Source of the DNA: an uncultured Spirochaetota bacterium
Lineage (GTDB): Bacteria; Spirochaetota; Spirochaetia; SZUA-6; Fen-1364
DNA length: 64,000 bases
NCBI GenBank assembly: GCA_963734545.1
Contig: CAVTHO010000009.1
Location: forward strand, 146,747-210,746
Direction of reading: 5' to 3'
Shown: in pieces, positions 6,815 to 25,188 of the stretch
How positions within the stretch are numbered: position 1 is the first letter of the stretch
Layout: the number at the start of each line of letters is the position of its first letter
The notes under the pieces: model-generated
What the model was told of the DNA's origin: nothing
The model's database searches: none
Seen by the model: the letters and a program-made list of their open reading frames with translations, nothing else
Position numbers and translations under genes: made by a program

Positions 6815-8569
6815 TCACTCCCGCTCCAGCTCGATCTGCTCCAGAATCGCCTCGCAGGGCCCCCGGCCGGACCATCGGGGCTCGATTGCGGCGATGCCTT
6901 GTTCGATGGAGAGCTCGGTGGCTACCGGCTGCGGGGAGCTGCCGGTGGCGGGAGAGGCCGCTCCGTAGCTCCAGTCCGCAACAGCGCCTTTGCCGTCGTA
7001 CGCGACGACTTCCAGGCTCACCGAACCCGAAGGACTCGGGACAGCCGCCGGAATCACGACTGCCCGCGCTGCCAGCCGGAGCTTCTCTCCCGGCTTGACC
7101 GGTATGCGATACCCTGTGCCGAGCGCCCAGTCCCGGGTCCCGCGATGCAGGAGGTGAACGGCCGTGGGGGCTCCCGCGGCATCATAGTCTATTCGAAGCG
7201 TGCCCGCTCCCGGGTCCCGGGTCCACAGCATCCCCCAGTCCTCGATGGGCATGATCAGCTTCGGCATCGAGCCTGCATTGAAGCTTTCAAGGGGCACCGG
7301 CTCCCGCGCGCTCGTTCCGCTGACCATTTCCAGGCCCAGGGCCTGGAGGCAGCCGACATCGACGGTACGTCCCTTGAAATGCGCCCTGTCCCGGTAATCC
7401 ACCATGCCCAATCCCTGGTCGTACTCCCACATCGCCCACCCAATATGCAACACCTCGAGGCTCGTGCGGACGTCTGAAATCCAGCGCAAACGATCCTCCG
7501 CGGGCGCCACCTTCTTGTAGACGCCGAACTCACCGCAGAACACGGGAACGCTGTGTGAGCTGCCCCAGTCGGCAGCTCGCGAAAGCTCCTTTCGAATCCG
7601 GGCCGCGTCCCAGCGCTCCTGGCCATACCAGCGGACCTGCTCGCGCGCTTTCGCGTCCCGCAGAATGCCGGCCGCCGCCGCAACCGCTTCAGGGCTCGAA
7701 GGATACGGGATGCCGGCAAGCTGCTTCTGGATCTCGCCGGTCCACTCGGCGCCCTGGTGGGTGAAGGTGAAAGGCTCATACCAATGGAAACTGTAGACGA
7801 CGTTCCCGTCCGCAAGGGGCTTCAGGGCGAGAAGACCATTGATGCCTCCCCATGACTCCCCGGTCGCGATGATCGTGCTCTGCGGGGCGCCGCGCCTGAT
7901 TGCCTCTGCCAGGCGCTCCTGCGCGGGAGGCCACCAGCCGGCGTCTATCTTTTCCACGGTGGACAGGTGCGGCTCGTTCATGACCTCGAAAAAAACGCGC
8001 TCTGTCGAGTAGGCGGCGTATCGGCGCGCAAGGGCTTCCCAGAAGCTTTCGACCCTGGACCTGAAAGCAGCATCGTGCGCCAGCCTGCTTTCAAAATCGT
8101 TGTTCGAGGAGGCGCCGTGAATCGGGTCCACGATCACGGCGAGCCCCGCATCGAGGGCCATGCGGACGGCTTTGTCCACGTACCGGATGGGGTCCAGAAA
8201 TGTTTCCGGCACGGCGTCGTTGTAGAGGACTTCGGGCGCAATGGTCAGCCGGACGACGCTGATGCCGGTTTCCTTGATCAGGGAGAAGTCGCTCTCCGTG
8301 AGCCGGTGTGCGTAGCGTTTCGGGTCGGAGTATGAGGAAAACCAGTTGTCGATATTGATGCCGCGTGCAAGGAGCTGCAGCCGGGCAGAGGGAACACCCC
8401 CGCTCCAGAGCATTGGCGAGGCGAGAATGGCGAGCACGATCGCAAGAGTAACACGCTGCACGGTGACAGGGTATGTCTTCAGACTCGCCCCGGCAAGACC
8501 GGTCCGGAAAGTCGGAAAAAACCGGATTCGATTTTCCGTGCTTTCCATTCCGGTTCTGGTATAATTCAC
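6815..8569 (-). CDS. Glycoside hydrolase family 5 (endoglucanase/mannanase-like) with a C-terminal beta-sandwich domain
   Basis: Catalytic acid/base FEVMNEPH and nucleophile VFCGEFGV. GINIDNWFS is typical of GH5. N-terminal signal peptide. Confidence 0.8.
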   Translation of the reverse strand: MNYTRTGMESTENRIRFFPTFRTGLAGASLKTYPVTVQRVTLAIVLAILASPMLWSGGVPSARLQLLARGINIDNWFSSYSDPKRYAHRLTESDFSLIKETGISVVRLTIAPEVLYNDAVPETFLDPIRYVDKAVRMALDAGLAVIVDPIHGASSNNDFESRLAHDAAFRSRVESFWEALARRYAAYSTERVFFEVMNEPHLSTVEKIDAGWWPPAQERLAEAIRRGAPQSTIIATGESWGGINGLLALKPLADGNVVYSFHWYEPFTFTHQGAEWTGEIQKQLAGIPYPSSPEAVAAAAGILRDAKAREQVRWYGQERWDAARIRKELSRAADWGSSHSVPVFCGEFGVYKKVAPAEDRLRWISDVRTSLEVLHIGWAMWEYDQGLGMVDYRDRAHFKGRTVDVGCLQALGLEMVSGTSAREPVPLESFNAGSMPKLIMPIEDWGMLWTRDPGAGTLRIDYDAAGAPTAVHLLHRGTRDWALGTGYRIPVKPGEKLRLAARAVVIPAAVPSPSGSVSLEVVAYDGKGAVADWSYGAASPATGSSPQPVATELSIEQGIAAIEPRWSGRGPCEAILEQIELERE

Positions 8570-8840: not shown

Positions 8841-9470
8841 CTACAGCGAGCGGCAGAACCGGACCATCTCCCGAACCGCCTCGGCCATGTTCTGCGCGTA
8901 CGTGCGGCCTGAGCTCTTGCGCGGCTTGAACGAGTGGTCCCCGTCTTCCAGATATGCCACCCGAATCGCGGCAGACAGCGTGTAGCCGGCAATCTCCTCC
9001 CGGGTCCCGAGCGTATCCCGGGTGCCCTGAAGGATAAGCGTGGGGGTCTTGAGATCCTTCAGGTGCGCCACTCGAAGACTGGCCGGTCTTCCCGCCGGAT
9101 GAAACGGGTAGCCCAGGCAGACCAGACCTTTCACACCGAGCCCGTCCGCCACCATGCTGGCAATCCGTCCACCCATCGACCTTCCGCCAATCACCAGCTC
9201 TGACGGCGAGCCGAGCTGATCCACGACGCCGGCCCAGCAATCCTGCAGCACCTTCGGCGCATCAGGGGCGGTTCTCCTGCCCGTCTTTCGAAACTCCTGC
9301 ATGTAGGGGAACTCGAACCTGATCACTTGAATGGACTCACCGACCAGCGCGTGCGCCATTTCTTCCATGGGCGGAGAGTCCATGAGCGACCCGGCTCCGT
9401 GCGCAAGAACCACGCGCAGCCAGGGCTTCCCGGCTTCCGGGGTGTCGATCAGCAAAGGTACAGTACTCAC
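8841..9470 (-). CDS. Alpha/beta-hydrolase fold protein (COG3571-like predicted hydrolase)
   Basis: GRSMGGRIASM nucleophile elbow (GxSxG) and VVLAHGAGS. The probable start is the GTG at 9470, preceded by GGAGGAGG, so the listed ORF is extended at the N-terminus. Confidence 0.7.
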   Translation of the reverse strand: MSTVPLLIDTPEAGKPWLRVVLAHGAGSLMDSPPMEEMAHALVGESIQVIRFEFPYMQEFRKTGRRTAPDAPKVLQDCWAGVVDQLGSPSELVIGGRSMGGRIASMVADGLGVKGLVCLGYPFHPAGRPASLRVAHLKDLKTPTLILQGTRDTLGTREEIAGYTLSAAIRVAYLEDGDHSFKPRKSSGRTYAQNMAEAVREMVRFCRSL

Positions 9471-9534
9471 GCAGCCTCCTCCGCGCCTATGGCCCCGGTG
9501 CCCGCAGTCACTTACATTGGACTGGGAAACAGGG

Positions 9535-11499
9535 ATGGCTATTGAAGAATATCGCCGCAAAAGAGACTTCAGCAAAACACCCGAACCCGAACCGGGAAAG
9601 CTGGACGTCGGGGGAAACAGGTTCGTCGTCCACCGGCACGAGGCGCGCAACCTCCACTATGATCTGCGGATCCAGGCGGGAGGGGTCCTGTCCTCCTGGG
9701 CCGTGCCGAAAGGATTCTCATACGATCCGGTGGACAAGAGGCTCGCGGTAAGGACCGAGGATCATCCGCTCGAGTACACGAGCTTCGAGGGGGCCATTCC
9801 GCGCGGCCAGTACGGCGCCGGTACGATGCGCATCTGGGACGTCGGGGAATACGAGGTGCGGAAAGCCCCCGACATCCATAGAGCAATCGAGAAGGGAGAA
9901 ATCAAGCTCGAGCTGCGGGGCCGGCGATTGCGCGGGGAATGGCACATGGTGCGCACCAAGGGGGGCGAAGGCAGGGACTGGCTGCTTTTCAAGGCCCGGG
10001 ATCGCTACGCCGGGTCCGGTAGCGACTTGTTCGGAGGCGCGGACATGAGCCGGGCAATCCAGAGACCGCCGCTCGGCAGGATTGCCCGAATGGAAGCCTC
10101 GCCCTGGCCGCTGCCCTTCGATGACCCGGACTGGCTTTTTGAACCGGCGCTGGCAGGGAAGCGCGTGCGCGCGTCGATCGACGGCCCTTCGGTCAGCATC
10201 CGGGCCGGGGCGGAAGACCTTGCCCCGGAGCTGCCGGCCGTTGTGGCGGATCTGGGGAAAATACGCGCGGAGACGCTGCTCTTCGATGGTGTTGTCGTCA
10301 CGGGCGAATCAGCGCCTGTTCTGTACGTCTTTGACGTGCTCTACGCCGAAGAATGGGACCTGAGGCAGCTCGCGCTCCGGGAGCGCAAGGCCGTCCTCCG
10401 TTCGCTCCTGCCGGACCTGAAATGCGTATTCCGGGTCGACCCGGTGGCCGAGCGCGGCTCGGCGCTCGCACAGGCAGCCGCCGAATCGGGGCTGTCGGCG
10501 ATTCTGGCCAAGCGCGCGTCGAGCAGATATCAGGCAGGACTCTCGGAGGACTGGCGGCACATACCGGTTACCGCGGCAAAGACCCGGAACCAGGCCAGGA
10601 AGCCTCCCCGCCCGGCCGAGTTTGCAATAACGAATCCCCGCAAGGTGTACTGGCCCGAGCAGGGATACACGAAAGGGGACCTGCTGGCCTACTACGAGCT
10701 GACCGCGGGCTGGCTCCTCCCTTACCTCAAGGACCGCCCCCTGCACATGTACAGGTGGCCGGATGGAATACGGGGCAAGTCGTTCTATCAGAAGCAGCTC
10801 CCCGAGGGAATTCCCGACTGGATCGAGACGGTGGATGTCGCCAAGGCTGGCGAGGAGCCGACGCACTACATCGTCTGCAACGACCGAAGGACGCTGCTGA
10901 CCCTCGTGAACCTCGGGACCATAGACATTCATCCCTGGCTTTCCCGCAGGGGCAGCCTCGATTCTCCGGACTGGGCGATCCTCGACCTGGACCCCAAGGA
11001 GGCTCCATTCTCGAATGTGATCAAGGTGGCGCGCGTCGTCGGCAAGCTCCTGCGGGGGCTCGGCCTCGAGGCCTACCTGAAGACTTCCGGCTCCACCGGG
11101 CTGCACGTCTGCATCCCGTTGAAGCCCGGCTACACCTACGAGCAGAGCCGCATGTTCTGCGAGGCCGTTGCGCGGCTCGTTGTGCGGGACCATGGTGACA
11201 TCGCGACCGTGGAGCGCGTCATGAGCCGTCGCGGGGGCCGGGTCTACGTGGATTTCCTTCAGAACCGAAGGGAGCAGACGGTCGTCCCGCCGTACGTGGT
11301 GCGGCCGGTGGAAGCTGCGTCGGTCTCGATGCCGCTCGCCTGGGACGAGCTCGAAGGGGAGCTGCGCATCGAGGACTTCACGCTGGCCACGGCACCCGCG
11401 CGCATCGAGAAGACGGGAGACCTTTTTCGCACTGCCCTCGGCAAGGGGCAGGATCTTGCGGGGGCCATCGAAGCCCTGGCGCGTTCCCTCGAGGCCTGA
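9535..11499 (+). CDS. ligD: LigD-like NHEJ polyprotein: phosphoesterase (PE) - degenerate ligase-like module - polymerase/primase (Pol)
   Basis: PE motifs are FVVHRHEARNLHYDLR. Pol motifs are ILDLDPKE, KTSGSTGLHVCIPL and VYVDFLQNRREQ. The middle region aligns to ligase motifs III-V (LLFDGVVV, YVFDVLY, ILAKR), but motif I is ALAG where KxDG is expected. ATG at 9535. Confidence 0.85.
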   Translation: MAIEEYRRKRDFSKTPEPEPGKLDVGGNRFVVHRHEARNLHYDLRIQAGGVLSSWAVPKGFSYDPVDKRLAVRTEDHPLEYTSFEGAIPRGQYGAGTMRIWDVGEYEVRKAPDIHRAIEKGEIKLELRGRRLRGEWHMVRTKGGEGRDWLLFKARDRYAGSGSDLFGGADMSRAIQRPPLGRIARMEASPWPLPFDDPDWLFEPALAGKRVRASIDGPSVSIRAGAEDLAPELPAVVADLGKIRAETLLFDGVVVTGESAPVLYVFDVLYAEEWDLRQLALRERKAVLRSLLPDLKCVFRVDPVAERGSALAQAAAESGLSAILAKRASSRYQAGLSEDWRHIPVTAAKTRNQARKPPRPAEFAITNPRKVYWPEQGYTKGDLLAYYELTAGWLLPYLKDRPLHMYRWPDGIRGKSFYQKQLPEGIPDWIETVDVAKAGEEPTHYIVCNDRRTLLTLVNLGTIDIHPWLSRRGSLDSPDWAILDLDPKEAPFSNVIKVARVVGKLLRGLGLEAYLKTSGSTGLHVCIPLKPGYTYEQSRMFCEAVARLVVRDHGDIATVERVMSRRGGRVYVDFLQNRREQTVVPPYVVRPVEAASVSMPLAWDELEGELRIEDFTLATAPARIEKTGDLFRTALGKGQDLAGAIEALARSLEA

Positions 11500-11516
11500 G
11501 CCCGGCCCGGACCGGG

Positions 11517-12728
11517 TCAGTCGTCCGGATCGTCCCTCCCCTTGTACCTGATCAGGGTGAGGTGCATCTCGCTAGGAAACGCTTTGAGGCATTCCGCTCG
11601 ATGAGGGAGCGCCTTGTCGTGCTGACCCGTGCGGGAGAATATGATTGCGAGATTGCAGTGCGCATCCGGATAGCGGGGCTCGAGGGACAGCGCGGTCTGG
11701 TAGGCATGGATCCCCTCGTCATGCTTGCCAATTGCCACCAGGCAATTGCCCAGATTGTTCCACGCCTCCGCGAAACCACGATCGGCATCGATAGCCTGCA
11801 GGTAACGCTCCGCCGCGTCCGCCTCGCGTCCCAGCTCGTAGAGAACATTTCCGAGGTTGAAGAGCGTTTCCGGATCTGGTTCCGCTTCGAGGGCCCGGCG
11901 GTACGCATCCGCTGCCCGCTGAAGATCGCCGCGCTCCTCGGCCTCCACCGCCTCGGAAAACCACCGGCTGTGGCTCTGGTCGCCTTCCGGGAAGATGGAC
12001 ACGCGGGGAGATGTCATCTCCCGCTCCGTGTCGAAATCCATGAGCCTCTGGCCGCTGGGCTCGGCCCAGCCTCCATCCAGCAGCCGGATGCGCAGCCCGC
12101 TGTCATACGCCTCGAGACGCCCGGCAATCTGTTCTCCATCCGGCACCCACTGGGCGATCTCGGAGAGGCTCTGGCGCAGCAGCGCGGTGGAGACTCCGGA
12201 TGCCGTCAGCCGGCCGAGGTTGCGCGCAAGCAGGATGTCCTTGAACTCGAACCAGGCCAGCCGATTGGCCACGCGCGCGGGAGGGAGCAGCCCTCGGCGC
12301 ATCCAGCTGCGGACCACGGAAAGGGGCTCGTCCACGATGCGGCCCACCTGGGCCGCGGTGTACATTCGGGAGATATCGCTCAATTCTCCTTCGGCGCCGA
12401 TCAAGGCCAGGAACTCGGCCTCGTCCACCAGCCGTATGGGTGCCCCCTGTTTCTTCAGCTCGCGGAAGCGCAGCATGTTGCGCGCAATACCCCCGTCCGG
12501 CGTGAAGTGCCCCGTTGCCTGGCCCGCTATGAGAAGCTCCGTGGTGGTCCCTGGCTCGCGCACGGGGCGGCCGCCGGCCCGGGTGATCCGCTGGACCGCC
12601 TCTGCCCTGTCCATGGAGACCAGACGACCGGTGAGCGCCACTTCCCTGCCGGCGAGCGATTCCTGAGGCGGCACTTTTTCCCTGCGCGGTACCCCGCGCA
12701 TTTCTTCTTCCGTCACGACGTCAGGCAT
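11517..12728 (-). CDS. BRCT domain - MerR-like HTH - TPR repeat protein, function unknown, within the NHEJ operon
   Basis: N-terminal LigA-type BRCT (VALTGRLVSMDRAEAVQRITRAGGRPV...ELLIAGQATG...LVDEAEFLALI). HTH is YTAAQVGRIVDEPLSVVRSWMRRGLL. Three or more C-terminal TPRs. Its start overlaps the ligase stop by 8 nt. Confidence 0.75.
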   Translation of the reverse strand: MPDVVTEEEMRGVPRREKVPPQESLAGREVALTGRLVSMDRAEAVQRITRAGGRPVREPGTTTELLIAGQATGHFTPDGGIARNMLRFRELKKQGAPIRLVDEAEFLALIGAEGELSDISRMYTAAQVGRIVDEPLSVVRSWMRRGLLPPARVANRLAWFEFKDILLARNLGRLTASGVSTALLRQSLSEIAQWVPDGEQIAGRLEAYDSGLRIRLLDGGWAEPSGQRLMDFDTEREMTSPRVSIFPEGDQSHSRWFSEAVEAEERGDLQRAADAYRRALEAEPDPETLFNLGNVLYELGREADAAERYLQAIDADRGFAEAWNNLGNCLVAIGKHDEGIHAYQTALSLEPRYPDAHCNLAIIFSRTGQHDKALPHRAECLKAFPSEMHLTLIRYKGRDDPDD

Positions 12729-13617
12729 CCAGAAGCCCCTCGAACACGGGTGCGCGAAGCAATCCCGCTGAGGTGAGCTCAGCGAAGCTTACCGCGCAGA
12801 ACAGGCCCGGCTCAACCCACCTCGCGCGTTCAGGGCAGGACACGAGCGGCGTGTCTCTCGGCCGCTGTCTCAGGAGCGTGTTGATCCTTTCGCGGACCCC
12901 TTCGGTGAAGCCGCCCCCCACTCTCCCGACATAGCGAAGCGCACCTTCCTGCTCTCCGGGAAGGCCGTTGCTCGCCACGAGCAGGCTCTGGAAGTCATCG
13001 CCATCCTTCTCGATATATCCGATGATGGCAACGTGGACCTGGAGCCGCCGCTTGAACTTCACCCAGGCGCCGTTGCGCTTTCCCGCCGCGTATGTGCTGG
13101 AGAGGCGCTTTGCCACGACTCCTTCAAGGCCCTGCTCGCAGGCCATCCGGTACAGCATCTTTCCTTTGGCGCGGACCCCTTCTGAAAGAATCACGCCCGG
13201 ACACGGGGAATCCTTCATGATCTCTTCGAGGACCCCGCGCCTTTCGGAGAACGGCGCGTCGAGCAGGGAGCGGGACGCGCTGTAGAGGACGTCAAACACG
13301 ACAAAGCTGACCGGCCAGGCGCCGGCACCGTGTCTGCTTTGAAGGACGAGCTCGAAATCAGGCTTGCCGTCGCGAAGAACAACCAGCTCCCCGTCCAGGA
13401 CGAGGCCGTCGGGGAGCGCGGCCAGGCCGGCAAGGGACGGGTAGCGCGCGGTGATATCCACCCCGTTGCGGCTCACAAGGCGATGCGCGCCGCGCTCCAC
13501 CAGGGCCTGCGTGCGGATGCCGTCCCACTTGAACTCGAAGAAATGGGCGTCCGAATCGAATGGCTGGCCGAGGACGGCGAGCATGGGGGGCACGAACCGG
13601 GGAAGCGCCTTATCCAA
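12721..13617 (-). CDS. ATP-dependent DNA ligase (LigD ligase-domain type), standalone
   Basis: Motif I EFKWDGIR, motif III LDGELVV, motif IV FVVFDVLY, motif V EGVVAKR, motif VI WVKFK. The true start is uncertain (ATG 13584, GTG 13593 or TTG 13617). The listed ORF start at 13797 overlaps Ku and is unlikely. Confidence 0.85.
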   Translation of the reverse strand: MDKALPRFVPPMLAVLGQPFDSDAHFFEFKWDGIRTQALVERGAHRLVSRNGVDITARYPSLAGLAALPDGLVLDGELVVLRDGKPDFELVLQSRHGAGAWPVSFVVFDVLYSASRSLLDAPFSERRGVLEEIMKDSPCPGVILSEGVRAKGKMLYRMACEQGLEGVVAKRLSSTYAAGKRNGAWVKFKRRLQVHVAIIGYIEKDGDDFQSLLVASNGLPGEQEGALRYVGRVGGGFTEGVRERINTLLRQRPRDTPLVSCPERARWVEPGLFCAVSFAELTSAGLLRAPVFEGLLDA

Positions 13618-14509
13618 CCTTCTTCTTCTTGGTCGTTGCGGCTTTGGCCGGCTTGGCGCTGGGAGCCTGCTTGAGCCCCGCCTTTGCCGCCTGCTTGTCC
13701 TCCACCGTTGCCTGCGCGCCGCTGGCTGCCTGGGCCTCTGCCACGCTGCGCTTGAGGGCCTCCATGAGATTGATGATCTTCGGCTCCTCGGGGTCACGGA
13801 TCTGGACGACTTCCTTCCCCTCGATCTTCATCTGGATCAGCTTTGTCAGCTTTTCCTTGTACACGTCGTGATACTTTGAAAAGTCGAAGCTCTTGATCAT
13901 CGAGGCTTTGATGAGCGTGTCCGCCAGGGACATTTCCGCATCGGACACTTCCGTTTCAGTGATCTCGTCCTTGAACGCGGAGGCGGCCTTCACCTCGTCC
14001 TTCCGGTTCAGAACGGTCATGGCCAGCACCCCGTCTATCGGCCGCAGCATGACCACCTGCTCTTTCTGGGAGATGACCACCTCGGCCATGGCGCACACCT
14101 GGTTCGCCAGCATGCCCTTCAGCAGAAGGTTGTACGGTTTCTGGCCCACGGGCCCGTCCGGCGTCAGGAAGTAGGTCCGGCCGCCCAGGTAGATCGTGCT
14201 GAGGTCCTCCGGCTTGATGAACCCGTCTATCCGGATGGACTTGTCGCTCTCGGTGCGCAGCTTGTCGATCTCATCCTCGTCGATGATGACATACTGCCCT
14301 TTCGAGTACTCGTAGCCCTTGACGATCTCCTCGCTGCTGACTTCACCAACCTCAGGGGCGAACTTCTTGTACTGGATCCGCGTGTGGGTTTTTGCGTGAA
14401 GCTGGTGGAGCGTGATGTCGCTCCCGGTCGACGTGGACGTATATGCCTTGACTGGCACTGAAACCAGGCTGAGCTTCAAGAACCCCTTCCAACTGGCATG
14501 GGCTGCCAT
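13610..14509 (-). CDS. ku: Ku protein (NHEJ DNA end-binding)
   Basis: N-terminus WKGFLKLSLVSVPVKAY matches the Ku core consensus. Lys-rich C-terminal tail (AKPAKAATTKKKKVG). GAGGAGG RBS upstream. Confidence 0.9.
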   Translation of the reverse strand: MAAHASWKGFLKLSLVSVPVKAYTSTSTGSDITLHQLHAKTHTRIQYKKFAPEVGEVSSEEIVKGYEYSKGQYVIIDEDEIDKLRTESDKSIRIDGFIKPEDLSTIYLGGRTYFLTPDGPVGQKPYNLLLKGMLANQVCAMAEVVISQKEQVVMLRPIDGVLAMTVLNRKDEVKAASAFKDEITETEVSDAEMSLADTLIKASMIKSFDFSKYHDVYKEKLTKLIQMKIEGKEVVQIRDPEEPKIINLMEALKRSVAEAQAASGAQATVEDKQAAKAGLKQAPSAKPAKAATTKKKKVG

Positions 14510-14708
14510 GAACGCCTCCTCGTACTGCCGTCACAGCGGGATGGGACACGGTCGTCGGCTCCCCGAAGCGGCCATACCTTCCCAATTCACTAAGGTATTG
14601 TCGGCATATTTCGAAGTCAACTTCCTGGGACCGGGAAGCGCCTGGCGCGCATGTGTGCACACACGGAGGCGAATACAGGGGCAGGCCCGCACGAGAAATC
14701 CAGGATTC

Positions 14709-14737
14709 TTGACACATAAGGTAGGAATTCATACGAT
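14709..14737 (+). promoter_or_regulatory. Sigma70-like promoter upstream of vapB (TTGACA-17-TACGAT)
   Basis: Near-consensus -35 and -10 hexamers with 17-bp spacing, 7 bp before the vapB ATG region. The surrounding sequence is locally AT-rich. Confidence 0.4.
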
Positions 14738-14743
14738 ATTGGT

Positions 14744-14965
14744 ATGAAAACAACGGTCTCGGAAAAGGGCCAGGTCACCATCCCGAAGGCAATTCGGGAC
14801 AAGCTGGGTCTCCGGCCCGGTACAGTCCTGGACTTCGATGCAATAGAGGGGAAGTTGATAGGAGTGAAAAAGGAGCAGGATGACCGCATCGGCCGATGGC
14901 TCGGCAAGGGATCCCTTCCCGGCGCGCTTTCCGTGGACGACTATCTGCGGCGGATCCGCGGATGA
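14744..14965 (+). CDS. vapB: AbrB/MazE-fold antitoxin (VapB-like)
   Basis: SEKGQVTIPKAIRDKLGL swapped-hairpin motif, 73 aa. Its stop overlaps the downstream PIN gene start (ATGA). Confidence 0.75.
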   Translation: MKTTVSEKGQVTIPKAIRDKLGLRPGTVLDFDAIEGKLIGVKKEQDDRIGRWLGKGSLPGALSVDDYLRRIRG

Positions 14966-15373
14966 TCACCGCAGTGGACAGCTCCGTCATCCTTGACGTG
15001 TTGACCGGGGACCAGGGCAATACGTCTGCGAGCCTCGCCGCTCTGCGAAAAGCTTCGCGGGAAGGCCGGTTGATTGTCAGCGAGAGTGTGGTTGCCGAGG
15101 TTCGGCCGGTATTTGAATCCAATTCCCTCTTCGAGGAGTTTCTGGGGGACTGGGGCCTGGAGTTCATGCCCTCCACGCTGCGCAGCTCGATCCGGGCGGG
15201 CGAGATGTTCCGTCAGATGCTGGCACGGAAGAAAAAGCAGGAGGGCAGGATACTGCCCGGATTTCCTTATTGGCGCGCACGCGCTCGAACACGCTGATCG
15301 ATTGCTTGCCAGGGATCGGGGTTTCCTGCGCGACTACTTCACCGAGCTGGCCCTCTGGGACCCGTCGCGATAG
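14962..15373 (+). CDS. vapC: PIN-domain toxin (VapC-like), reading frame interrupted by a -1/+1 shift near 15230-15265
   Basis: N-terminus [17 protein letters not shown] (PIN Asp) in one frame and C-terminus [22 protein letters not shown] (PIN C-terminal motif) in another. The junction lies near an A5 run. Confidence 0.6.
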
Positions 15374-15416
15374 CCCGCCTGGGAGGGACGCAGGATTGAG
15401 AGACAAAAGGGAGCTG

Positions 15417-16025
15417 ATGCAACTGGAGCTTGCCGAATGGCGCAGACTGACAGGGGAGCTGTATGCGGCGGTACGCACGTCCTCCACGGGAGAGGGCGAG
15501 CAGGCGTGGAGAGCTTTTGTGAACACGCGGAGCGAAATGTTCCGCGCCCACCCTCAATCGCCGCTTACTGCCCGACAAAAGAAGACCTTCCAGGCGCTGC
15601 TCTACTTCCCGTACAATCCGGCCTGGCGATTTCAGGTCCGGGCAGAGCCTCTCGAGACCGCGGCCGCTGCCCGATCGCTGGCCGTCGATCTGCCGGAAGG
15701 AAAGGCCGGTCTCCTGCCTTTTGCGCACGTCCACTTTGCCTCTGTGCAGCTCACGCTGTACTGGATCGAAGGGTACGGTGGGGGACTCTTCCTGCCTTTC
15801 AAGGACAGGACGAACGGCACCGAGACATACGGCGGGGGCCGCTATCTGTACGACACGATCAAGGGCGCGGACCTCGGAGCCGGTCCTGACACGATGCTGC
15901 TCGACTTCAACTTCGCCTACAATCCCTCGTGCGCATACAGCCCGCAGTGGACGTGTCCGCTCGCGCCTGCGGAAAACAACCTGCCGCTGCGTATCGAGGC
16001 GGGAGAGCTTGCTTTCGAAGGGTGA
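15417..16025 (+). CDS. DUF1684 family protein
   Basis: Conserved GGGLFLPFKD..NGTETYGGGRYL...DFNFAYNPSCAYS..W.CPL signature. ATG at 15417 with an AAGGGAG RBS. Confidence 0.8.
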   Translation: MQLELAEWRRLTGELYAAVRTSSTGEGEQAWRAFVNTRSEMFRAHPQSPLTARQKKTFQALLYFPYNPAWRFQVRAEPLETAAAARSLAVDLPEGKAGLLPFAHVHFASVQLTLYWIEGYGGGLFLPFKDRTNGTETYGGGRYLYDTIKGADLGAGPDTMLLDFNFAYNPSCAYSPQWTCPLAPAENNLPLRIEAGELAFEG

Positions 16026-16029
16026 GCGC

Positions 16030-16731
16030 CTATCGCGAGGCCCGCTTCGGCGCTGCCCGCCGTGTGAGCTCCCTGGGCGGCGGCGGGGTGAGGCCTTTGG
16101 TTACCCGCGTCCCGATGGATTTCATCAACGGCCCCACGACCTTCTTGAATGGAATAGCAAGCGGATAGTCGTGATTGTACGGCGCAGCCCAGTGCCGCCC
16201 GATGAGGGTCGCGTAGACCGACAGGGTCTGCTTGGCGGCCATGAAGTCCCGCGCGCTGAGAATCTCGTCGGCAAGTCCGAACGGGATGCTCCGCATGAGC
16301 GAGCCCCGCGCGTACTCCACTGCCCATACTCCATCCGTGAAGTTCATGCCGCAGGCCTGGCCTTTGCCCACGAAGATGCGGTCTCCCGGTCGGTACACCC
16401 GCTTTTCGAACTGCCCCTCGGCGTAGTACCAGGTCTCCCCGTCGATCACCGTGTCCCAGAACGCCACGCGGTGGCGCCCCGAGTGGCCTTCGGAACCGAT
16501 GGGGGTGCCCCAGATCATCACGTACTCCTGGAGCGACGCGAAGTAGAGCTTCATCTGGATCATCGCGCCCCCTGCAATGCTGTAGATCCAGGGCTGGCTG
16601 TTGTCGATATGGCCCGGGTAGCGCTCCTCGACCGCCCGCGCGAACACATCGAACATCTCCGGCTTGCGATGGCCCAGACAGGCCATGGCACACTCATCGA
16701 TCACCTCGGGGTCGAAAATGTATCTCTTCAT
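16030..16731 (-). CDS. ERG2 / sigma-1 receptor family protein (soluble, no N-terminal TM)
   Basis: Clear similarity to sigma-1R/C-8 sterol isomerase: AGGAMIQMKLYFASLQEYVMIWGTPIGSEGHSGRH...WAVEYARGSLMRSIPFGLADEILSARDF versus human SIGMAR1 [35 protein letters not shown]...[28 protein letters not shown]. Confidence 0.85.
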   Translation of the reverse strand: MKRYIFDPEVIDECAMACLGHRKPEMFDVFARAVEERYPGHIDNSQPWIYSIAGGAMIQMKLYFASLQEYVMIWGTPIGSEGHSGRHRVAFWDTVIDGETWYYAEGQFEKRVYRPGDRIFVGKGQACGMNFTDGVWAVEYARGSLMRSIPFGLADEILSARDFMAAKQTLSVYATLIGRHWAAPYNHDYPLAIPFKKVVGPLMKSIGTRVTKGLTPPPPRELTRRAAPKRASR

Positions 16732-16787
16732 GGCTCTCCTCGCATGACACACATGGTAGCCGAGCTTGCATAGGTTGGCAAGGTACT

Positions 16788-18047
16788 CTATGAGATCATC
16801 CTGGCCAGGAACTTCGAACGGAAGGTGTTCCCCATCACCACCCGCTGAACGGGAGGAAGCGCAAGGAACGCCCCCACCACGGCACGGAGAAAGCGATGGC
16901 TCGCAAGGTTGGGATTGTTGAAAAGGAAATTCTGCAGAGTGCCGCGTTCGAGCGCCTGAAGCACAACTCTTTCGACCGTATTCTCGGGCAGGAGGACCCT
17001 CTGTCCGCGCGGGACGAGACGCATTGCTTTCTTCCGGCAGGCAAGACCGCACACCCCGCAGCCGATGCAGAACGTCGAGTCCACGGCAGGCTTCCGGGTC
17101 GCCGGCGTGCTGTCACTCATCTGGATTGCATCAATCGGACAGGCGTCGGCGCACCTCCCGCAGCCCGCGCAGAGCGCGTTATTGCATTCGGCAATGAAGC
17201 GTGATGTCACAAGGATGTTCGGATACCCGAACTTCCTTATTCCGTTGAGGACGGTGCAGCAGCACTTGCAGCAGAGACAGATGAACTGGACGTCCCGCCG
17301 GACATTATCCGCGTTCAGGACGAGCCTCATTTCCTTTGCCCGCGCGAGCAGCTCATGCAGCTCGCTCCTCGATACCGGCCGGGCAAGATTCCTGCGCACC
17401 GCGTAGTCGACGTCCCGCCCGAAGCTCACGCACATCTCCAGCGGGCTCTCGCAATTCTTCTGGCCCAGGTGGAGCATCTTGTGCCGGCACGAGCAGATGC
17501 CGACCGCCGCGCCGGGTGCCTGATCAACCAGGGCGCTTGCTTTCTCATGGTCCAGCACTTCAACGTGCGGCGATGCAACCGCGTCAACGTGGGGGATGGT
17601 GCGCAGGACCGATACTTTCTGACCACGTCCGAAATTGGCTTTGAGGAACTCGTCGCTTCCCAGCAGGTAATCCTTGAAGAGCTTCGCCATGCGGGCAAAA
17701 TCAAGCTCGCCGTCCGTGCGCATCATGGTGTATTCGAAAATCCCGATGACCATGGGCGAGACGGTGTAGTGGAACTCATCACCGATCTCGAGGTCCATGA
17801 CCAGCCCCTTTGCGGCGAGTCTTTCCAGCGCCCGGCGAAGTTTCTCCACCTCGATGCCCGTGATCTGTCGAAGACGCGGAAGTGTCGTGAGCCCCGCGGG
17901 TATCCGGGAAACGAGCTCCGCCTCCTCGACGGTGTACAGCTCACGCAGGACCGCGCGGAGAGCCTCGTTCCATGGAGTGCGGACGGTGAGCCCGTCGATT
18001 GCAGTGCCCAGATCCCGGTAGACATCCTTGGATGCGAGATGACCCAT
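16788..18047 (-). CDS. Fe-S protein with two C-terminal 4Fe-4S ferredoxin-type clusters and an N-terminal winged-helix-like region
   Basis: CAGCGRCADACP and CIGCGVCGLACR CxxCxxCxxxCP motifs, plus an unusual CLCCKCCC run. The ATG at 18047 lies 2 nt after the upstream MFS stop, preceded by GGAGG. Confidence 0.7.
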   Translation of the reverse strand: MGHLASKDVYRDLGTAIDGLTVRTPWNEALRAVLRELYTVEEAELVSRIPAGLTTLPRLRQITGIEVEKLRRALERLAAKGLVMDLEIGDEFHYTVSPMVIGIFEYTMMRTDGELDFARMAKLFKDYLLGSDEFLKANFGRGQKVSVLRTIPHVDAVASPHVEVLDHEKASALVDQAPGAAVGICSCRHKMLHLGQKNCESPLEMCVSFGRDVDYAVRRNLARPVSRSELHELLARAKEMRLVLNADNVRRDVQFICLCCKCCCTVLNGIRKFGYPNILVTSRFIAECNNALCAGCGRCADACPIDAIQMSDSTPATRKPAVDSTFCIGCGVCGLACRKKAMRLVPRGQRVLLPENTVERVVLQALERGTLQNFLFNNPNLASHRFLRAVVGAFLALPPVQRVVMGNTFRSKFLARMIS

Positions 18048-20903: not shown

Positions 20904-21933
20904 ATGAAGGCCCTGGTGAAAAAAGGCCCGGGAAAGCGGCTGGAGATGCAGCAGGTCCCGATGCCCGTGGTCGGGGGCAACGATCTGTTGATCCGGGTTA
21001 CCAAGGCCGCCATCTGCGGCACCGACCTGCACATCTGGAACTGGGACGAGTGGTCGCAGCGCACCCTTCGGCCTCCTCTGATCACGGGACACGAGTTCGT
21101 GGGACGGATCGTCGACATGGGCGCCAAGCGTCAGCGGCTACGAGATCGGCGAGCGCGTCTCCGGCGAAGGCCACATCGTCTGCGGCGTCTGCAGGAGCTG
21201 CCGCGCGGGGCGCCGGCACCTCTGCACCAACACGGTCGGCATCGGCGTGAACCGTGACGGCTGCTTTGCGGAGTACCTCTCCCTGCCCGCGCCGAACGCC
21301 TGGCACGTGCACCCGGGGATCCCCTCGGAGATCGCCTGCTTCCTCGACCCGCTGGGAAACGCCACGCACTCTGCCCTCTCCTTCGACCTGGTGGGAGAGG
21401 ACGTTCTGATCACGGGAGCGGGGCCCATCGGCATCATGGCGGCGGCCATCTGCCGGCACTGCGGCGCACAGCGGATCGTCGTCACGGACGTCAACGACTA
21501 CCGCCTGGGGCTTGCTGCCAGGATGGGGGCCACCATGACGGTGAACGTGTCCCGGACCTCCATCGAGGATGCGCGGAAGGAGCTGGGGATCATCGGGTTC
21601 GACATCGGCCTGGAGATGTCGGGAAACGGCGCGGCGTTCGAGTCGATGCTGGAGAACATGTACCACGGCGGGCGTATCGCGCTGCTGGGCATCCTTCCCA
21701 ACTCGACGGGAATCCGCTGGGACCAGGTGATCTTCAAGGGCCTGGTCATCAAGGGGATCTACGGCAGAGAGATCTTCGAGACCTGGTACAAGATGCAGAC
21801 GATGCTGCAGAGCGGGCTCGACGTGAGCCCGGTGCTCACACACCGGTTTCCCTTCGAGCAGTTCGAGAAAGGGTTCGAGGTCATGCAGTCCGGGCAGCTG
21901 CGGCAAGGTGATCCTCGAGATCGCGGAGGATGA
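20904..21933 (+). CDS. tdh: L-threonine 3-dehydrogenase, with an apparent +1 frameshift near 21128
   Basis: Collinear with E. coli Tdh: [10 protein letters not shown]...[16 protein letters not shown], then [32 protein letters not shown] in the next frame. A single extra base near aagcgtc explains the shift. TATAAT lies 14 nt upstream of the ATG. Confidence 0.85.
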
Positions 21934-23158
21934 AGAAGATGCTTGACCATGACGCGCGGAGGGAGCTGGGTGAGCGGATTGCCGAAATCCGTTCCGCGGG
22001 GACGTACAAGGAGGAGCGGGTCATCCAGACGCCGCAGGGGGTGCATCTTCGCGTGCGGCCGGGAAACGAGGTGCTGAACTTCTGCGCCAACAATTATCTC
22101 GGGCTCGCCTCCCACCCGCGGGTGCTCGCTGCCGCGCACGCGGCCTCGACCGCTGGGGATACGGCATGGCGTCGGTGCGTTTCATCTGCGGCACCCAGGA
22201 GGTGCACGCGGAGCTGGAGAAGCGCATGGCGGCGTTCCTGGGCACGGAGGACGCGCTGCTGTACTCTTCCTGCTTCGACGCCAACGGCGGCGTCTTCGAG
22301 CCTCTCCTGGACAAGGACTGCGCGCTCATTACCGACCAGCTCAATCACGCTTCCCTCATAGATGGCGCGCGGCTGTGCAAGGCAAATCGTTTCATCTACG
22401 CCCACGCGGACATGAGCGATCTGGCGGAGAAGCTCGGGGAGGCGTCAACCGCGCGGCTCAGGATGATCGTCACGGACGGGGTTTTCTCCATGGACGGAGA
22501 CCTGGCGAACCTCCCCGAGATCTGCGCGCTTGCCGAGAAGCACAGGGCAATGGTCATGGTGGACGACAGCCACGCCACGGGATTCATCGGCAGGAAAGGC
22601 AGGGGCACGGCGGAGCACTTCGGCGTGACCGGCCGCGTGGACATTATCTCCACGACGTTCGGCAAGGCACTCGGGGGCGCCACGGGAGGATGCCTCGCAG
22701 GCAGGAAGGAGATCGTCGAGCTCCTTCGCCAGAGGAGCAGGCCATACCTGTTCTCCAACTCGCTGGCGCCGGTGGTGGCGGGAGCGAGCATCGCCGTCAT
22801 CGAGATGCTCAGTGAAAGCACCGAGCTGCGCGACAGGCTCGAAGAGAACACGGTCTTTTTCCGGCAGGCCATCACAGACGCGGGATTCGACGTGAAGCCC
22901 GGCATACACCCCATCGTTCCCATCATGCTCTACGAGGAGAGCCGGGCCGTGGAGATGGCGCGCCGGCTCCTGGATGAGGGCATCTACGTCATCGGCTTCT
23001 CCTACCCCGTGGTGCCGAAAGGCCAGGCCCGGATTCGCGTGCAGGTCTCCGCCGTGCACACTCGAAACGACCTGGAAAAGGCCGTGTCGGCATTTGCCCG
23101 GGTGGGAAGGACCATCGGCCTGCTGAAACAGGATGCGCGGAAAAACTTGACCGTGTGA
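21930..23158 (+). CDS. kbl: 2-amino-3-ketobutyrate CoA ligase (glycine C-acetyltransferase), with an apparent frameshift near 22143
   Basis: [16 protein letters not shown]...then [19 protein letters not shown] in another frame; strong collinearity with E. coli Kbl through [26 protein letters not shown] overlaps the tdh stop (ATGA). Confidence 0.85.
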
Positions 23159-23274
23159 GTCGGCCATGTTACGCTTCGAGCGCAATCCGCTGCCTTGCAC
23201 GGCACACCGTGCAGTTCCGCGGATTCGGTCTTCCCGATAAACGTGCCGCCAATCCTGGATTCAGGGGGAGAGGA

Positions 23275-25188
23275 ATGGAAAACACTCTTGTAAAGGTGCA
23301 TTGGTCGGTCGCCCAGAAGTATCCTGATTCAGCTGCACTCATGAGCAAGGACAAGAAAGGTGAGTGGTCCTCGGTCACTTTTCGTCAGTTCGCCGCCTCG
23401 TACGAATGTTTCGGAGCGGGTCTGCTCGAATTCGGCGTGAAAAGAGGTGACCACGTCGGGGTCATTGCCGACAACCGGAAGGAATGGCTGTTCGCCAATC
23501 TGGGCATCCTCGGAATCGGTGCGGCGGATGTTCCCCGCGGCTGCGACACAATGCCCGACGAGGCGCGATTCATCCTCCACCATGCGGATTGTGGAATCAG
23601 CCTTGCGGAAAACGCGGAACAGCTCAGGAAGATCCTGGGAAAGAAAAAGGATCTTCCGCTCCTCAAGACCATCATCGTCATTGACGAGGAGTTCAAGCCG
23701 GAGGACTTCAGGGAGCCGACCGAGGGCGTGCAGATCGTCACCTATCAGCACATCATGGAGCTCGGCAGGAAAAGGCTCGCCGCCGATCCGCAGGCGTACC
23801 GGCGCGAGATGGAGAAGGGAACGCCGGAAGAGCTTGCCACCATCATCTACACCTCGGGTACAACAGGTGAGCCGAAGGGCGTCATGCTCACCCACGGAAA
23901 CTTCCTGCACAATATCCGCACCATCCCGAATGCCATTCACGTGGGACCCACCGACATATTCCTGTCGGTCCTTCCCGTGTGGCACTCCTTCGAGCGCATG
24001 ATCGACAACTTCGCCCTTTCCCAGGGCACGGCCCTTGCGTACTCCAAGCCTGTCGGGAAGATCATGCTCGCCGACATGGCGGCCGTGAAGCCCACGATAA
24101 TGGCGTCGGTTCCCCGGATCTGGGAAGGGGTGCGGGCCGCGATCTACCGCAACGTGAACGAGGAAGGCGGAATCAAGAAGGCGTTGTTCCAATTCTTCGT
24201 TGCTGTGGGCAAAGCTCATGCCGCGGCGTCGGCCCTCGTCCGCGGACTCTTCCCACGGTTCACGCGCAGGTACCGTATCACGGATTTCCTTATCGGCATC
24301 CTTCCCTTCATCCTGCTTTTCCCTCTCAAAGCCCTGGGCAATCTTCTCGTGTTCAAGAAGATCAAGGCCCGGCTGGGAGGACGGTTTCGTTTCACCGTTT
24401 CCGGTGGCGGAGCGCTTCCCCCGTACGTCGACAAGTTCTTCCAGGCCGCGGGAGTGCTCCTCCTGGAAGGGTACGGCCTCACGGAGACCACGCCCGTGGT
24501 ATCCGTGCGGCTGCAGGATCATCCCGTACCGGGCACGATCGGTCCGCTCCTGGCCGAGATGCAGATGAAGCTGCTGGACCCCGAGACGGGTGTGGAAGTG
24601 GGACCGGGGAAAAAGGGAGTCATCTACCTCAAGGGTCCCAACGTCATGAAAGGCTACTACAAGCGGCCTGACAAGACGGCGGAGGTTCTTTCAGCCGATG
24701 GCTGGCTGAACACGGGGGACCTGGGCATGGTCACCTGGAAGGGCGAGATCCGGATAATCGGCAGGACCAAGGAGACAATTGTTCTCCTTGGCGGGGAGAA
24801 CGTCGAGCCGGTTCCAATCGAGGATACGATTCTCGAAAGCGAATACATCGACCAGGTCATGGTGGTCGGCCAGGACCAGAAATTCCTGGCCGCGCTCGTT
24901 GTGCTCAACGATGAAGCGATGGAGAGATACGCGAAGGAGCAGGAGATCGGCTGGACGGACAAGACCGATCTTCTGAACAACTCGCAGATCCTGGAGCTTG
25001 TCTCCGATGAGATCAACTCCCGGGTCAACGCAAAGGGCGGCTTTCGGGAGTTCGAGCGGGTCTTCCGGTTCAAGGTGCTGCCGAAACATTTCCAGCCCGG
25101 CGTGGAGCTCTCCGCCAAGCAGAGCATGAAACGGAGCGTCATCGCCGATATCTACAAAAAGGAAATCGCGGGCTTGTTCGAGATCTAG
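23275..25188 (+). CDS. Long-chain-fatty-acid--CoA ligase (AMP-forming)
   Basis: AMP-binding motif IIYTSGTTGEPKGVMLTHGN. GYGLTET is also present. ATG at 23275 with a GGGGGAGAGG RBS. Confidence 0.85.
   Translation: MENTLVKVHWSVAQKYPDSAALMSKDKKGEWSSVTFRQFAASYECFGAGLLEFGVKRGDHVGVIADNRKEWLFANLGILGIGAADVPRGCDTMPDEARFILHHADCGISLAENAEQLRKILGKKKDLPLLKTIIVIDEEFKPEDFREPTEGVQIVTYQHIMELGRKRLAADPQAYRREMEKGTPEELATIIYTSGTTGEPKGVMLTHGNFLHNIRTIPNAIHVGPTDIFLSVLPVWHSFERMIDNFALSQGTALAYSKPVGKIMLADMAAVKPTIMASVPRIWEGVRAAIYRNVNEEGGIKKALFQFFVAVGKAHAAASALVRGLFPRFTRRYRITDFLIGILPFILLFPLKALGNLLVFKKIKARLGGRFRFTVSGGGALPPYVDKFFQAAGVLLLEGYGLTETTPVVSVRLQDHPVPGTIGPLLAEMQMKLLDPETGVEVGPGKKGVIYLKGPNVMKGYYKRPDKTAEVLSADGWLNTGDLGMVTWKGEIRIIGRTKETIVLLGGENVEPVPIEDTILESEYIDQVMVVGQDQKFLAALVVLNDEAMERYAKEQEIGWTDKTDLLNNSQILELVSDEINSRVNAKGGFREFERVFRFKVLPKHFQPGVELSAKQSMKRSVIADIYKKEIAGLFEI

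Follow-up and report, generated by a model that had tools for sequence, protein, structure and literature searches.

In bacteria, non-homologous end joining (NHEJ) has usually been described as a two-protein system, which consists of Ku and a ligating LigD. In canonical LigD proteins, such as that of Pseudomonas aeruginosa, the 3′-phosphoesterase (PE), ligase (LIG) and primase-polymerase (POL) modules follow each other in one chain. In one of the LigD proteins of Agrobacterium tumefaciens, LigD1, one of the three modules (POL) is truncated and inactive, and the ligase motifs are all present (PMC1920237). A LigD mutant of Mycobacterium smegmatis, with the ligase disrupted and the polymerase and nuclease intact, still supports NHEJ, with LigC sealing around 20% of the breaks, as summarized in PMC5663958. 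A non-catalytic role in end synapsis has been reported for human ligase IV (PMC3549972). Here, a LigD-like gene at 9535..11499 of the forward strand is described from the window, i.e., the whole analyzed stretch of 64,000 nucleotides from an uncultured Spirochaetota bacterium (contig CAVTHO010000009.1 of the assembly GCA_963734545.1, positions 146,747 to 210,746). Its product is probably a naturally ligase-dead descendant of PE-LIG-POL LigD, for which a neighboring ligase would perform the sealing and in which the dead nucleotidyltransferase (NTase) domain would be kept for a non-catalytic role. The original prediction, which was made from the letters of the stretch alone, named this product a polyprotein; the name is a misnomer for what is a multidomain protein.

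The open reading frame of the gene spans 9331..11499 (+), and the start matching that of the homologues is the ATG at 9535 (MAIEEYRRKRDF..., MAIEEY...), resulting in a protein of 654 amino acids (aa). Three independent metagenome proteins (P0001-P0003) with 98, 91 and 84% identity and 100% coverage have an identical length and start. The gene and its parts, with the evidence for each, are as follows.

9535..11499 (+): gene of the 654-aa PE/pseudo-NTase/POL protein; open reading frame, start and length of the homologues, Pfam and NCBIfam, AF2
9535..10005 (+): PE domain, aa 1-157, with the catalytic residues intact; PF13298, TIGR02777, alignment to 2lj6
10006..10092 (+): linker from PE to the pseudo-NTase, aa 158-186 (YAGSGSDLFGGADMSRA...), predicted to be ordered; conservation, AF2, ratio of nonsynonymous to synonymous substitution rates (dN/dS)
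10093..10569 (+): pseudo-NTase domain, aa 187-345, an adenylylation fold without catalytic residues and with no oligonucleotide-binding (OB) domain after it; profile, AF2, Foldseek
10147..10164 (+): aa 205-210, ALAGKR as the remnant of motif I; alignment with 1vs0 and with the neighboring ligase, family census
10570..10623 (+): variable disordered linker at the position of the lost OB domain, aa 346-363; dN/dS, identity, pLDDT
10624..11499 (+): POL (AEP) domain, aa 364-654, with the catalytic motifs intact; PF21686, TIGR02778, structure alignments

The two outer domains are recognized above the thresholds of their models. PE matches LigD_N in Pfam (PF13298, aa 33-140, E 3e-41) and TIGR02777 in NCBIfam (200.5 bits, cut-off 144), and POL matches LigD_Prim-Pol (PF21686, aa 379-631, E 3e-87) and TIGR02778 (248.7 bits, cut-off 214.7). 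Sequence matches in the PDB include 2lj6 and 2fao, with 5dmu as the best relative of POL (E 1e-53) and 5dmp matching PE (E 3e-41). The alignment to the PE domain of P. aeruginosa LigD (2lj6) keeps the motifs RKRDF, HRH, LHYDLR and EDHPLEY, and the ligands of the metal and phosphate (His, His, Asp, Arg, His, Tyr) are present. The POL motifs DLDP, KTSGSTGLHV and YVDFLQN align with the mycobacterial and archaeal PolDoms 5dmu, 5op0 and 6sa0, and the catalytic patterns DxD...D and SGxxGxH are found in them. The earlier view of the PE and Pol motifs as intact agrees with the alignments to all four structures (2lj6, 5op0, 6sa0, 5dmu), and both domains are predicted to be active.

The region between them behaves differently in the same searches. 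The single sequence gives only a partial, sub-threshold Pfam match to DNA_ligase_A_M (aa 258-340, 23.2 bits vs the cut-off of 26.2), and it fails the ligase-domain model TIGR02779 (60.4 bits vs 227.75). No match of the 654-aa protein to DNA_ligase_A_C, the OB domain (PF04679), is present in Pfam, and neither phmmer nor tblastn detects an OB domain in the window gene or in any of the 33 loci of the family. The variable linker of 18 residues is the sole spacer between the pseudo-NTase and POL. All of the full-length LigD models fail as well: TIGR02776 (311.7 vs 373.2), PRK05972 (500.2 vs 895), PRK09632 (383.8 vs 989) and PRK09633 (221.8 vs 774).

A significant alignment over the full length of the NTase domain requires a family profile, as the single sequence does not rise above the Pfam threshold. 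For this profile (A1), 116 full-length members of the family were aligned, the middle segment was excised, and 30 sequences were used. The profile matches the NTase domain of Mycobacterium tuberculosis LigD (1vs0, residues 11-185) with E 1.3e-23 and, next in rank, ATP-dependent ligases of archaeal and human origin, and hhalign aligns it to the stand-alone ligase encoded next to the LigD-like gene with a probability of 99.1%. Because the profile matches both the 1vs0 NTase and the neighboring ligase, the correspondence of the motifs is not a product of chance.

These alignments define which residues have been lost. In the window protein, motif I (KxDGxR) has become ALAGKR, where both the Lys nucleophile and the Asp are replaced by Ala. 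This replacement was reported in the original prediction, and it is seen in the alignments to 1vs0 and to the neighboring ligase as well as in the census of the 116 sequences; the alignment with M. tuberculosis LigD places no conserved Lys or Asp at motif I. In the census, the Lys position is occupied by Ala (54), Arg (16), Glu (15), Lys (7) and Val (5), the Asp position mostly by Val, Ala or Pro, and Gly208 and Arg210 are invariant. The change of motif III from DGE to DGV was also read correctly, and the position of the Glu is taken by Val, Ile or Met in 116/116 sequences. Motif IIIa (aromatic-x-FDxLY) is retained as YVFDVLY. In motif IV (EGxxxK), which reads SAILAK here, the Glu has disappeared and the Lys does not vary in the census, and in motif V (WxKxK, here WRHIP) the Trp is invariant and both Lys are lost. 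The latter substitution, WVKFK to WRHIP, was noticed earlier under the label of motif VI; the substitution is real and the label is not, as the true motif VI sits in the absent OB domain. Motif Ia (SRxG) is replaced, and motif VI is gone together with the whole domain that carries it. The loss in the ligase module therefore includes the substitutions that had been pointed out and the deletion of the entire OB domain, which had been missed. What remains are 15 invariant columns, including W200, E203, G208, R210, D267, K326 and W340, in sequences down to 36% identity. With the loss of the Lys nucleophile, of the Glu in motifs III and IV, of the Lys in motif V and of the OB domain with motif VI, the formation of ligase-AMP and the sealing of DNA should be impossible, and the ligase module of the 654-aa protein is almost certainly catalytically dead.

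A separate observation concerns the small clade of the window. The window protein and P0001-P0005 lack approximately 20 residues (consensus ALDxxGRPSxxALxxxLxxG) between motifs III and IIIa, at 10297..10320 (+), about aa 255-262. Judged by the alignment, the dead domain has thus been reduced further in this lineage specifically.

According to the structure prediction, the remnant retains the adenylylation fold. The AF2 model of the pseudo-NTase has a pLDDT of 89.2 and a pTM of 0.83, and the model of the full-length protein reaches 88.5 and 0.84, respectively, with the disorder limited to the OB-replacing linker (pLDDT below 50 at aa 354-360) and to one loop of POL. The linker from PE to the pseudo-NTase, in which Y158, D170, A174 and M186 are nearly invariant, has a pLDDT of 76-90 in the same model. 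In the Foldseek search, the top matches of the predicted pseudo-NTase are ATP-dependent DNA ligases (3rr5, 1vs0, 6bkg and others; probability 1.0, TM 0.63-0.72), with E 5e-10 and TM 0.65 for 1vs0, and the prediction superposes on the structures of the LigIV catalytic core 6bkg and 9cqc.

The selective constraint on the separate regions was estimated by the Nei-Gojobori method for the window gene and two close homologues, i.e., for three close pairs. The dN/dS of the pseudo-NTase is 0.16, 0.11 and 0.11, compared with 0.05-0.10 for PE, 0.06-0.08 for POL, 0.13-0.21 for the linker between PE and the pseudo-NTase (aa 158-186) and 0.49-0.74 for the linker at the former OB position. The mean pairwise identity within the family follows a similar order, with 0.68 for PE and POL, 0.52 for the pseudo-NTase and 0.17 for the linker at the OB position. 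The middle domain thus combines homology to an enzyme family, loss of the catalytic residues and purifying selection, which together define a pseudoenzyme. It is a maintained pseudoenzyme module, somewhat less constrained than PE and POL.

Such an architecture is not confined to the window. The best 120 database matches (52-98% identity) have Pfam matches to PE and POL and at most a weak match to a ligase, and 105 of them have a length of 650-700 aa. When one genome per species was scanned with the profile of the middle domain, 80 loci (designated with L below) were obtained and classified with domain references taken from the window. All 33 OB-less PE-NTase-POL proteins lack KxDG, and all 47 OB-containing proteins have it; the association between the loss of the OB domain and the loss of KxDG gives a Fisher p = 3e-23, calculated on loci that are not phylogenetically independent of each other, given that all pseudo-domains belong to one clade. 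The OB-less proteins come from Spirochaetota, which include the nearest relatives of the window, from Acidobacteriota including Marinacidobacterales, from Planctomycetota including Brocadiaceae, and from unclassified metagenome-assembled genomes (MAGs). In the neighbor-joining (NJ) tree of the NTase domains, all of the dead ones group in a single clade. The stand-alone ligases encoded beside them form a separate clade, which is nested among the active LigD-type ligases and the own subclades of which roughly parallel those of the pseudo-domains. When 1.84 billion cluster representatives were searched exhaustively with a profile, 22 clusters of the pseudo-type were among the top 150. Two further OB-less PE-NTase-POL proteins, P0150 (717 aa) and P0196 (730 aa), have Gln or Arg in place of the motif I Lys, with the motif I DG and the motif III DGE intact; judging from these motifs, they may represent intermediate or independent stages of the decay of the ligase module.

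The LigD-like gene is accompanied by the genes listed below.

13610..14509 (-): Ku, 299 aa, at the head of the minus-strand operon; PF02735 (E 3e-44), TIGR02772 (255 bits, cut-off 150)
12721..13617 (-): stand-alone ATP-dependent ligase with NTase and OB domains, about 298 aa; PF01068, PF04679, TIGR02779, 1vs0
11517..12728 (-): third gene of the operon, 403 aa, with a BRCT-like N-terminus, a MerR helix-turn-helix (HTH) and TPR; Pfam, NCBIfam
8841..9440 (-): Abhydrolase_11 gene, divergent neighbor of the LigD-like gene, start approximate; PF20408 (E 6e-73)

On the minus strand, the operon begins with Ku, which is followed by the stand-alone ligase and then by the BRCT/MerR/TPR gene. The ligase probably starts at a TTG that overlaps the stop of Ku (ttggataa, 13610..13617), and the stop of the ligase overlaps the start of the third gene (12721..12728); such overlaps suggest a translational coupling along the operon. 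The operon was previously described as divergently paired with the LigD-like gene, and its third gene, lying between the ligase and the LigD-like gene, was overlooked. In fact, the arrangement is convergent: the LigD-like gene and the BRCT/MerR/TPR gene stand tail to tail, with 17 bp between the stops at 11499 and 11517, and the divergent neighbor is the Abhydrolase_11 gene. Ku lies 2.1 kb from the LigD-like gene. The window contains no second NHEJ set: Ku, PE, POL and an intact ligase are each present only once, and its sole match to an OB domain is the stand-alone ligase. A scan for promoters and terminators of 9300..11700 gave nothing above the shuffled expectation.

Motifs I-V of the stand-alone ligase are intact (KWDG, DGE, FDVLY, EGVVAK, WVKFK), and it matches 1vs0 with E 1e-33. 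It belongs to the LigD-LIG type (TIGR02779, 230.0 bits) and not to the LigC type (PRK08224, 104 vs the cut-off of 296). It had been regarded as a bona fide ligase, which holds for motifs I-V; its C-terminus (12721..12765, -) reads ...LRAPVFEGLLDA, with GLLDA in the place where the LigD-type ligases have GLRxDK of motif VI. In the BRCT/MerR/TPR protein, Pfam recognizes MerR_1 HTH at aa 123-189 and TPR at aa ~250-385. The BRCT-like assignment comes from NCBIfam, where the protein matches LigA and Pol III epsilon in their BRCT parts, the Pfam BRCT match having only E 0.13, and a PDB sequence search is dominated by TPR matches, with nothing on the N-terminus.

The same set of genes recurs around related proteins. 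Within 10 kb of 32 distinct pseudo-type loci, the solo ligase is present in 17/32, the BRCT/MerR/TPR gene in 15/32 and Ku in 12/32. The cluster of Ku and the stand-alone ligase is found again in other Spirochaetota, in Planctomycetota/Brocadiaceae and in an unclassified MAG, and its order there is usually convergent. Ku, the solo ligase and the BRCT/MerR/TPR gene are convergent directly downstream of the LigD-like gene also in L004, L008, L009, L011, L013, L020, L030, L059 and L075; L023 and L041 have the same arrangement without the BRCT/MerR/TPR gene, and in L003 a helicase-nuclease gene stands between the LigD-like gene and the ligase genes. Homologues of the BRCT/MerR/TPR gene adjoin the solo ligase at 15/32 pseudo-type loci and occur at 0/48 canonical LigD loci. 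Its product is a candidate for an accessory factor or a regulator of NHEJ that is specific to clusters of this type, and it may be a new one.

Other neighbors vary between the lineages. The upstream position of the Abhydrolase_11 gene is conserved only in Spirochaetota loci (10/32 pseudo-type, 2/48 canonical). In one subclade of Spirochaetota, the gene of a protein of ~1136 aa abuts the stop of the pseudo-ligase LigD gene, e.g., in L001 at 12031..15441 (+), and lies before the ligase genes; it is also found in L002, L003, L005, L006, L010, L012 and L084 and is absent from the window. The protein combines an RNase_H_2/PolB-exonuclease-like domain with an SF1 helicase (AAA_11/AAA_12). In Acidobacteriota loci, a stand-alone PolB-exonuclease-like/RNase_H_2 protein of 211 aa is encoded on the opposite strand, shortly downstream of the LigD-like gene and no more than ~3 kb away from it (L015 11502..12137 (-); also L017, L024, L027 and L028). 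Four syntenic genes upstream on the same strand of the Acidobacteriota loci encode SLT, an unknown protein, a GT4 glycosyltransferase and another unknown protein; these were considered as conserved repair partners and set aside, as they probably reflect lineage synteny unrelated to repair. Further away in the window, the genes at 6815..8569 (-), 15270..16025 (+), 16030..17112 (-) and 21082..25188 (+) are ordinary chromosomal genes. The flanking products include a GH5 cellulase-family protein, DUF1684, an ERG2/sigma-1-receptor-like protein, a zinc-type dehydrogenase, an aminotransferase and an AMP-binding enzyme, and nothing among the flanking genes of the window points to a mobile element or a plasmid.

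The features of the protein and of its neighborhood lead to the following model. PE, predicted to act as a 3′-phosphatase and to trim 3′-ribonucleotides, would process the broken ends held by Ku, and POL, predicted to fill gaps and to add nucleotides with or without a template, would do so preferably with rNTPs; together, the two domains would heal and remodel the DNA ends. The former ligase module is reduced to a domain of the predicted NTase fold that should neither self-adenylylate nor seal. The strand would be sealed in trans by the stand-alone NTase-OB ligase, co-transcribed with Ku and the BRCT/MerR/TPR protein, and this ligase beside Ku is the most likely candidate for the sealing. The dead domain, kept by purifying selection, would most likely have a non-catalytic structural role: it may preserve the relative placement of PE and POL that was inherited from LigD, or it may dock DNA, Ku or the stand-alone ligase. 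A division of labor between the PE-POL protein and a separate ligase, as the original prediction proposed, is supported by comparative evidence, i.e., by the loss of the residues and of the OB domain, by the clade and by the recurrent operon.

Several observations weigh against this model of a dead LigD module served by a neighboring ligase. The partnership with Ku and the ligase is not visible everywhere, because eight Acidobacteriota members have neither gene within 10 kb. The assumed sealing enzyme itself deviates from the canonical one. Motif VI assists self-adenylylation in other ATP-dependent ligases, and both its Arg and its Lys are missing in all 18 orthologous partner ligases (GLIEE, GLVDD etc.); the TIGR02779 score of the partner ligase barely passes (230.0 vs 227.75). 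The deviation in motif VI is not unique to the partner ligase, because among the sampled canonical LigD-type proteins the Lys is missing in eight and the Arg in one. Compared with PE and POL, the constraint on the pseudo-domain is 1.5-3 times weaker, and this, together with the loss of ~20 residues, would also fit a spacer under loose constraint instead of a module for a specific interaction. Moreover, the monophyly of the dead domains in the NJ tree may be exaggerated by long-branch attraction.

The constraint is also the point at which the preferred explanation has to be compared with one in which the middle segment is a neutrally decaying relic, a mere spacer between PE and POL, the sequence of which is irrelevant. 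Such a relic would explain the faster evolution of the segment compared with PE and POL (identity 0.52 vs 0.68, dN/dS up to 3 times higher), the ~20-aa deletion specific to the clade of the window, and a single sequence that stays below the Pfam cut-off. However, the dN/dS of the segment (0.11-0.16) is much lower than that of the adjacent true linker (0.49-0.74), 15 columns remain invariant across sequences down to 36% identity, the predicted fold is confident (pLDDT 89), and the domain persists in at least three phyla. Neutral decay is disfavored by the selection analysis and appears improbable. The selection signal also bears on the idea that the substitutions result from a sequencing or assembly artefact, or that the gene is a pseudogene. 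Indel-type errors were noted elsewhere in the window by the original prediction, and the ligase matches are split in some related loci from nanopore MAGs (L003, L004). Nevertheless, the frame of 654 aa is intact, relatives of the same length from metagenomes (98, 91 and 84%) share the motif I remnant, purifying selection is strong and more than 100 homologues share the features. With this family-wide conservation, the artefact and pseudogene readings were rejected, their probability being negligible; the original judgment that the substitutions are unlikely to stem from indel-type errors was sound.

The two other explanations assign the middle domain a part in the ligation. It could still be a ligase with a non-canonical nucleophile or cofactor, e.g., K209 or the invariant K326. 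Residues of the pocket do survive (Arg210 of motif I, the aromatic Y264 of IIIa and Lys326 of motif IV), and databases label members of the family as 'non-homologous end-joining DNA ligase', but these names derive from the POL model TIGR02778 and not from a ligase model, and the Glu of motifs III and IV, both Lys of motif V, motif Ia and the OB domain with motif VI have been lost together. The position of K209 is variable (Arg 67, Lys 24, others Gln, Thr, Ser or Ala), and as it is not conserved, K209 was rejected as an alternative nucleophile. Altogether, a surviving ligase activity is very improbable. According to the other explanation, the dead NTase is a docking or activating module for the stand-alone ligase, so that the OB-less and the motif-VI-less halves have co-evolved as a split LigD holoenzyme. 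In its stricter form, the dead NTase would be an obligate half, which recruits, positions or activates the solo ligase, perhaps with the BRCT/MerR/TPR protein included. The co-location of the LigD-like gene and the solo ligase in 17/32 loci of at least three lineages is in accordance with it, as are the rough congruence of the pseudo-domain and solo-ligase clades, the absence of the motif VI Arg and Lys in 18/18 partner ligases, and the purifying selection on the pseudo-domain. Congruent trees are, however, expected from the plain co-inheritance of a gene cluster, eight canonical LigD-type proteins also lack the motif VI Lys, and the Acidobacteriota members have no nearby ligase. ATP-dependent ligases are typically monomeric, and to our knowledge no heterodimer of two NTase domains is known, which also counts against it. 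A docking or activating module of this kind is therefore unlikely, and the obligate holoenzyme is given the same limited chance; if true, it would constitute a previously undescribed multi-component bacterial NHEJ machine of Spirochaetota, Planctomycetota and relatives.

The preferred explanation, a ligase-dead LigD descendant with sealing by the neighboring ligase, has consequences for the annotation as well as for specialists in NHEJ and ligases. No description of a Lys-less or OB-less LigD was found in the searched full-text literature, including a structural review of LigD and a paper on the comparative genomics of NHEJ. Both the pathway and its components are well known, but a dead ligase module that lacks the OB domain, is fixed and under selection, and has a dedicated gene cluster appears to be undescribed in that literature. 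Databases name the members of the family 'non-homologous end-joining DNA ligase' or 'bifunctional ... LigD', and the ligase names apparently stem from the POL-domain model TIGR02778. Surveys of conventional NHEJ that count LIG domains would misclassify the genomes with this family. The NTase core is kept under selection across phyla after its inactivation and the loss of the OB domain, which argues for a non-catalytic role of LIG in LigD. Such a role has also been raised for eukaryotic ligase IV, and the family, which parallels in nature the ligase-dead LigD mutants made in the laboratory, provides a natural setting in which it can be tested.

In comparison with the known systems, the window protein is closest in its layout to canonical PE-LIG-POL LigD (P. 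aeruginosa LigD; PRK05972/TIGR02776). The domain order is the same, PE and POL are homologous with all of the catalytic residues, the middle domain is homologous to the LIG NTase, and Ku is nearby. In contrast, the window protein has neither the Lys nucleophile, nor the Glu of motifs III and IV, nor the Lys of motif V, nor the OB domain with motif VI; it is ~200 aa shorter and stays below the thresholds of the full-length models. A. tumefaciens LigD1 is a precedent for a natural LigD with a single inactive module (PMC1920237), although POL is dead there and LIG is dead in the window protein. The A. tumefaciens LigD2 locus resembles the window in having a LigD gene beside an oppositely transcribed operon of Ku and a minimal ligase, Ku2-Ku3-LigC2 (PMC1920237), but the partner is of the LigC type there and of the LigD-LIG type (TIGR02779) in the window. 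Ligase IV, by functional analogy only, supports the notion that a ligase module may matter for end joining apart from catalysis (PMC3549972); it is catalytically competent and acts in the context of tandem BRCT domains and XRCC4. The M. smegmatis mutant, as summarized in PMC5663958, resembles the arrangement proposed for the window, in which a non-ligating LigD would take part in NHEJ together with a separate sealing ligase. That mutant carries a point mutation made in the laboratory, and its fold and OB domain are intact, whereas the family of the window protein is natural, ancient, fixed in its clade and OB-less, and the partner ligase of the window is encoded in the Ku operon. The split NHEJ of the archaeon Methanocella paludicola (5dmu, 5dmp) also separates the ligase from the end-processing activities, and its NHEJ polymerase (5dmu) is the closest solved relative of the window POL. 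In a fully split system, the ligase, Pol and PE are separate polypeptides; the window has the separate ligase (12721..13617) and does not have separate Pol and PE. In M. paludicola, PE and POL are separate, with no ligase-like remnant, whereas the window protein fuses PE and POL through a dead NTase domain.

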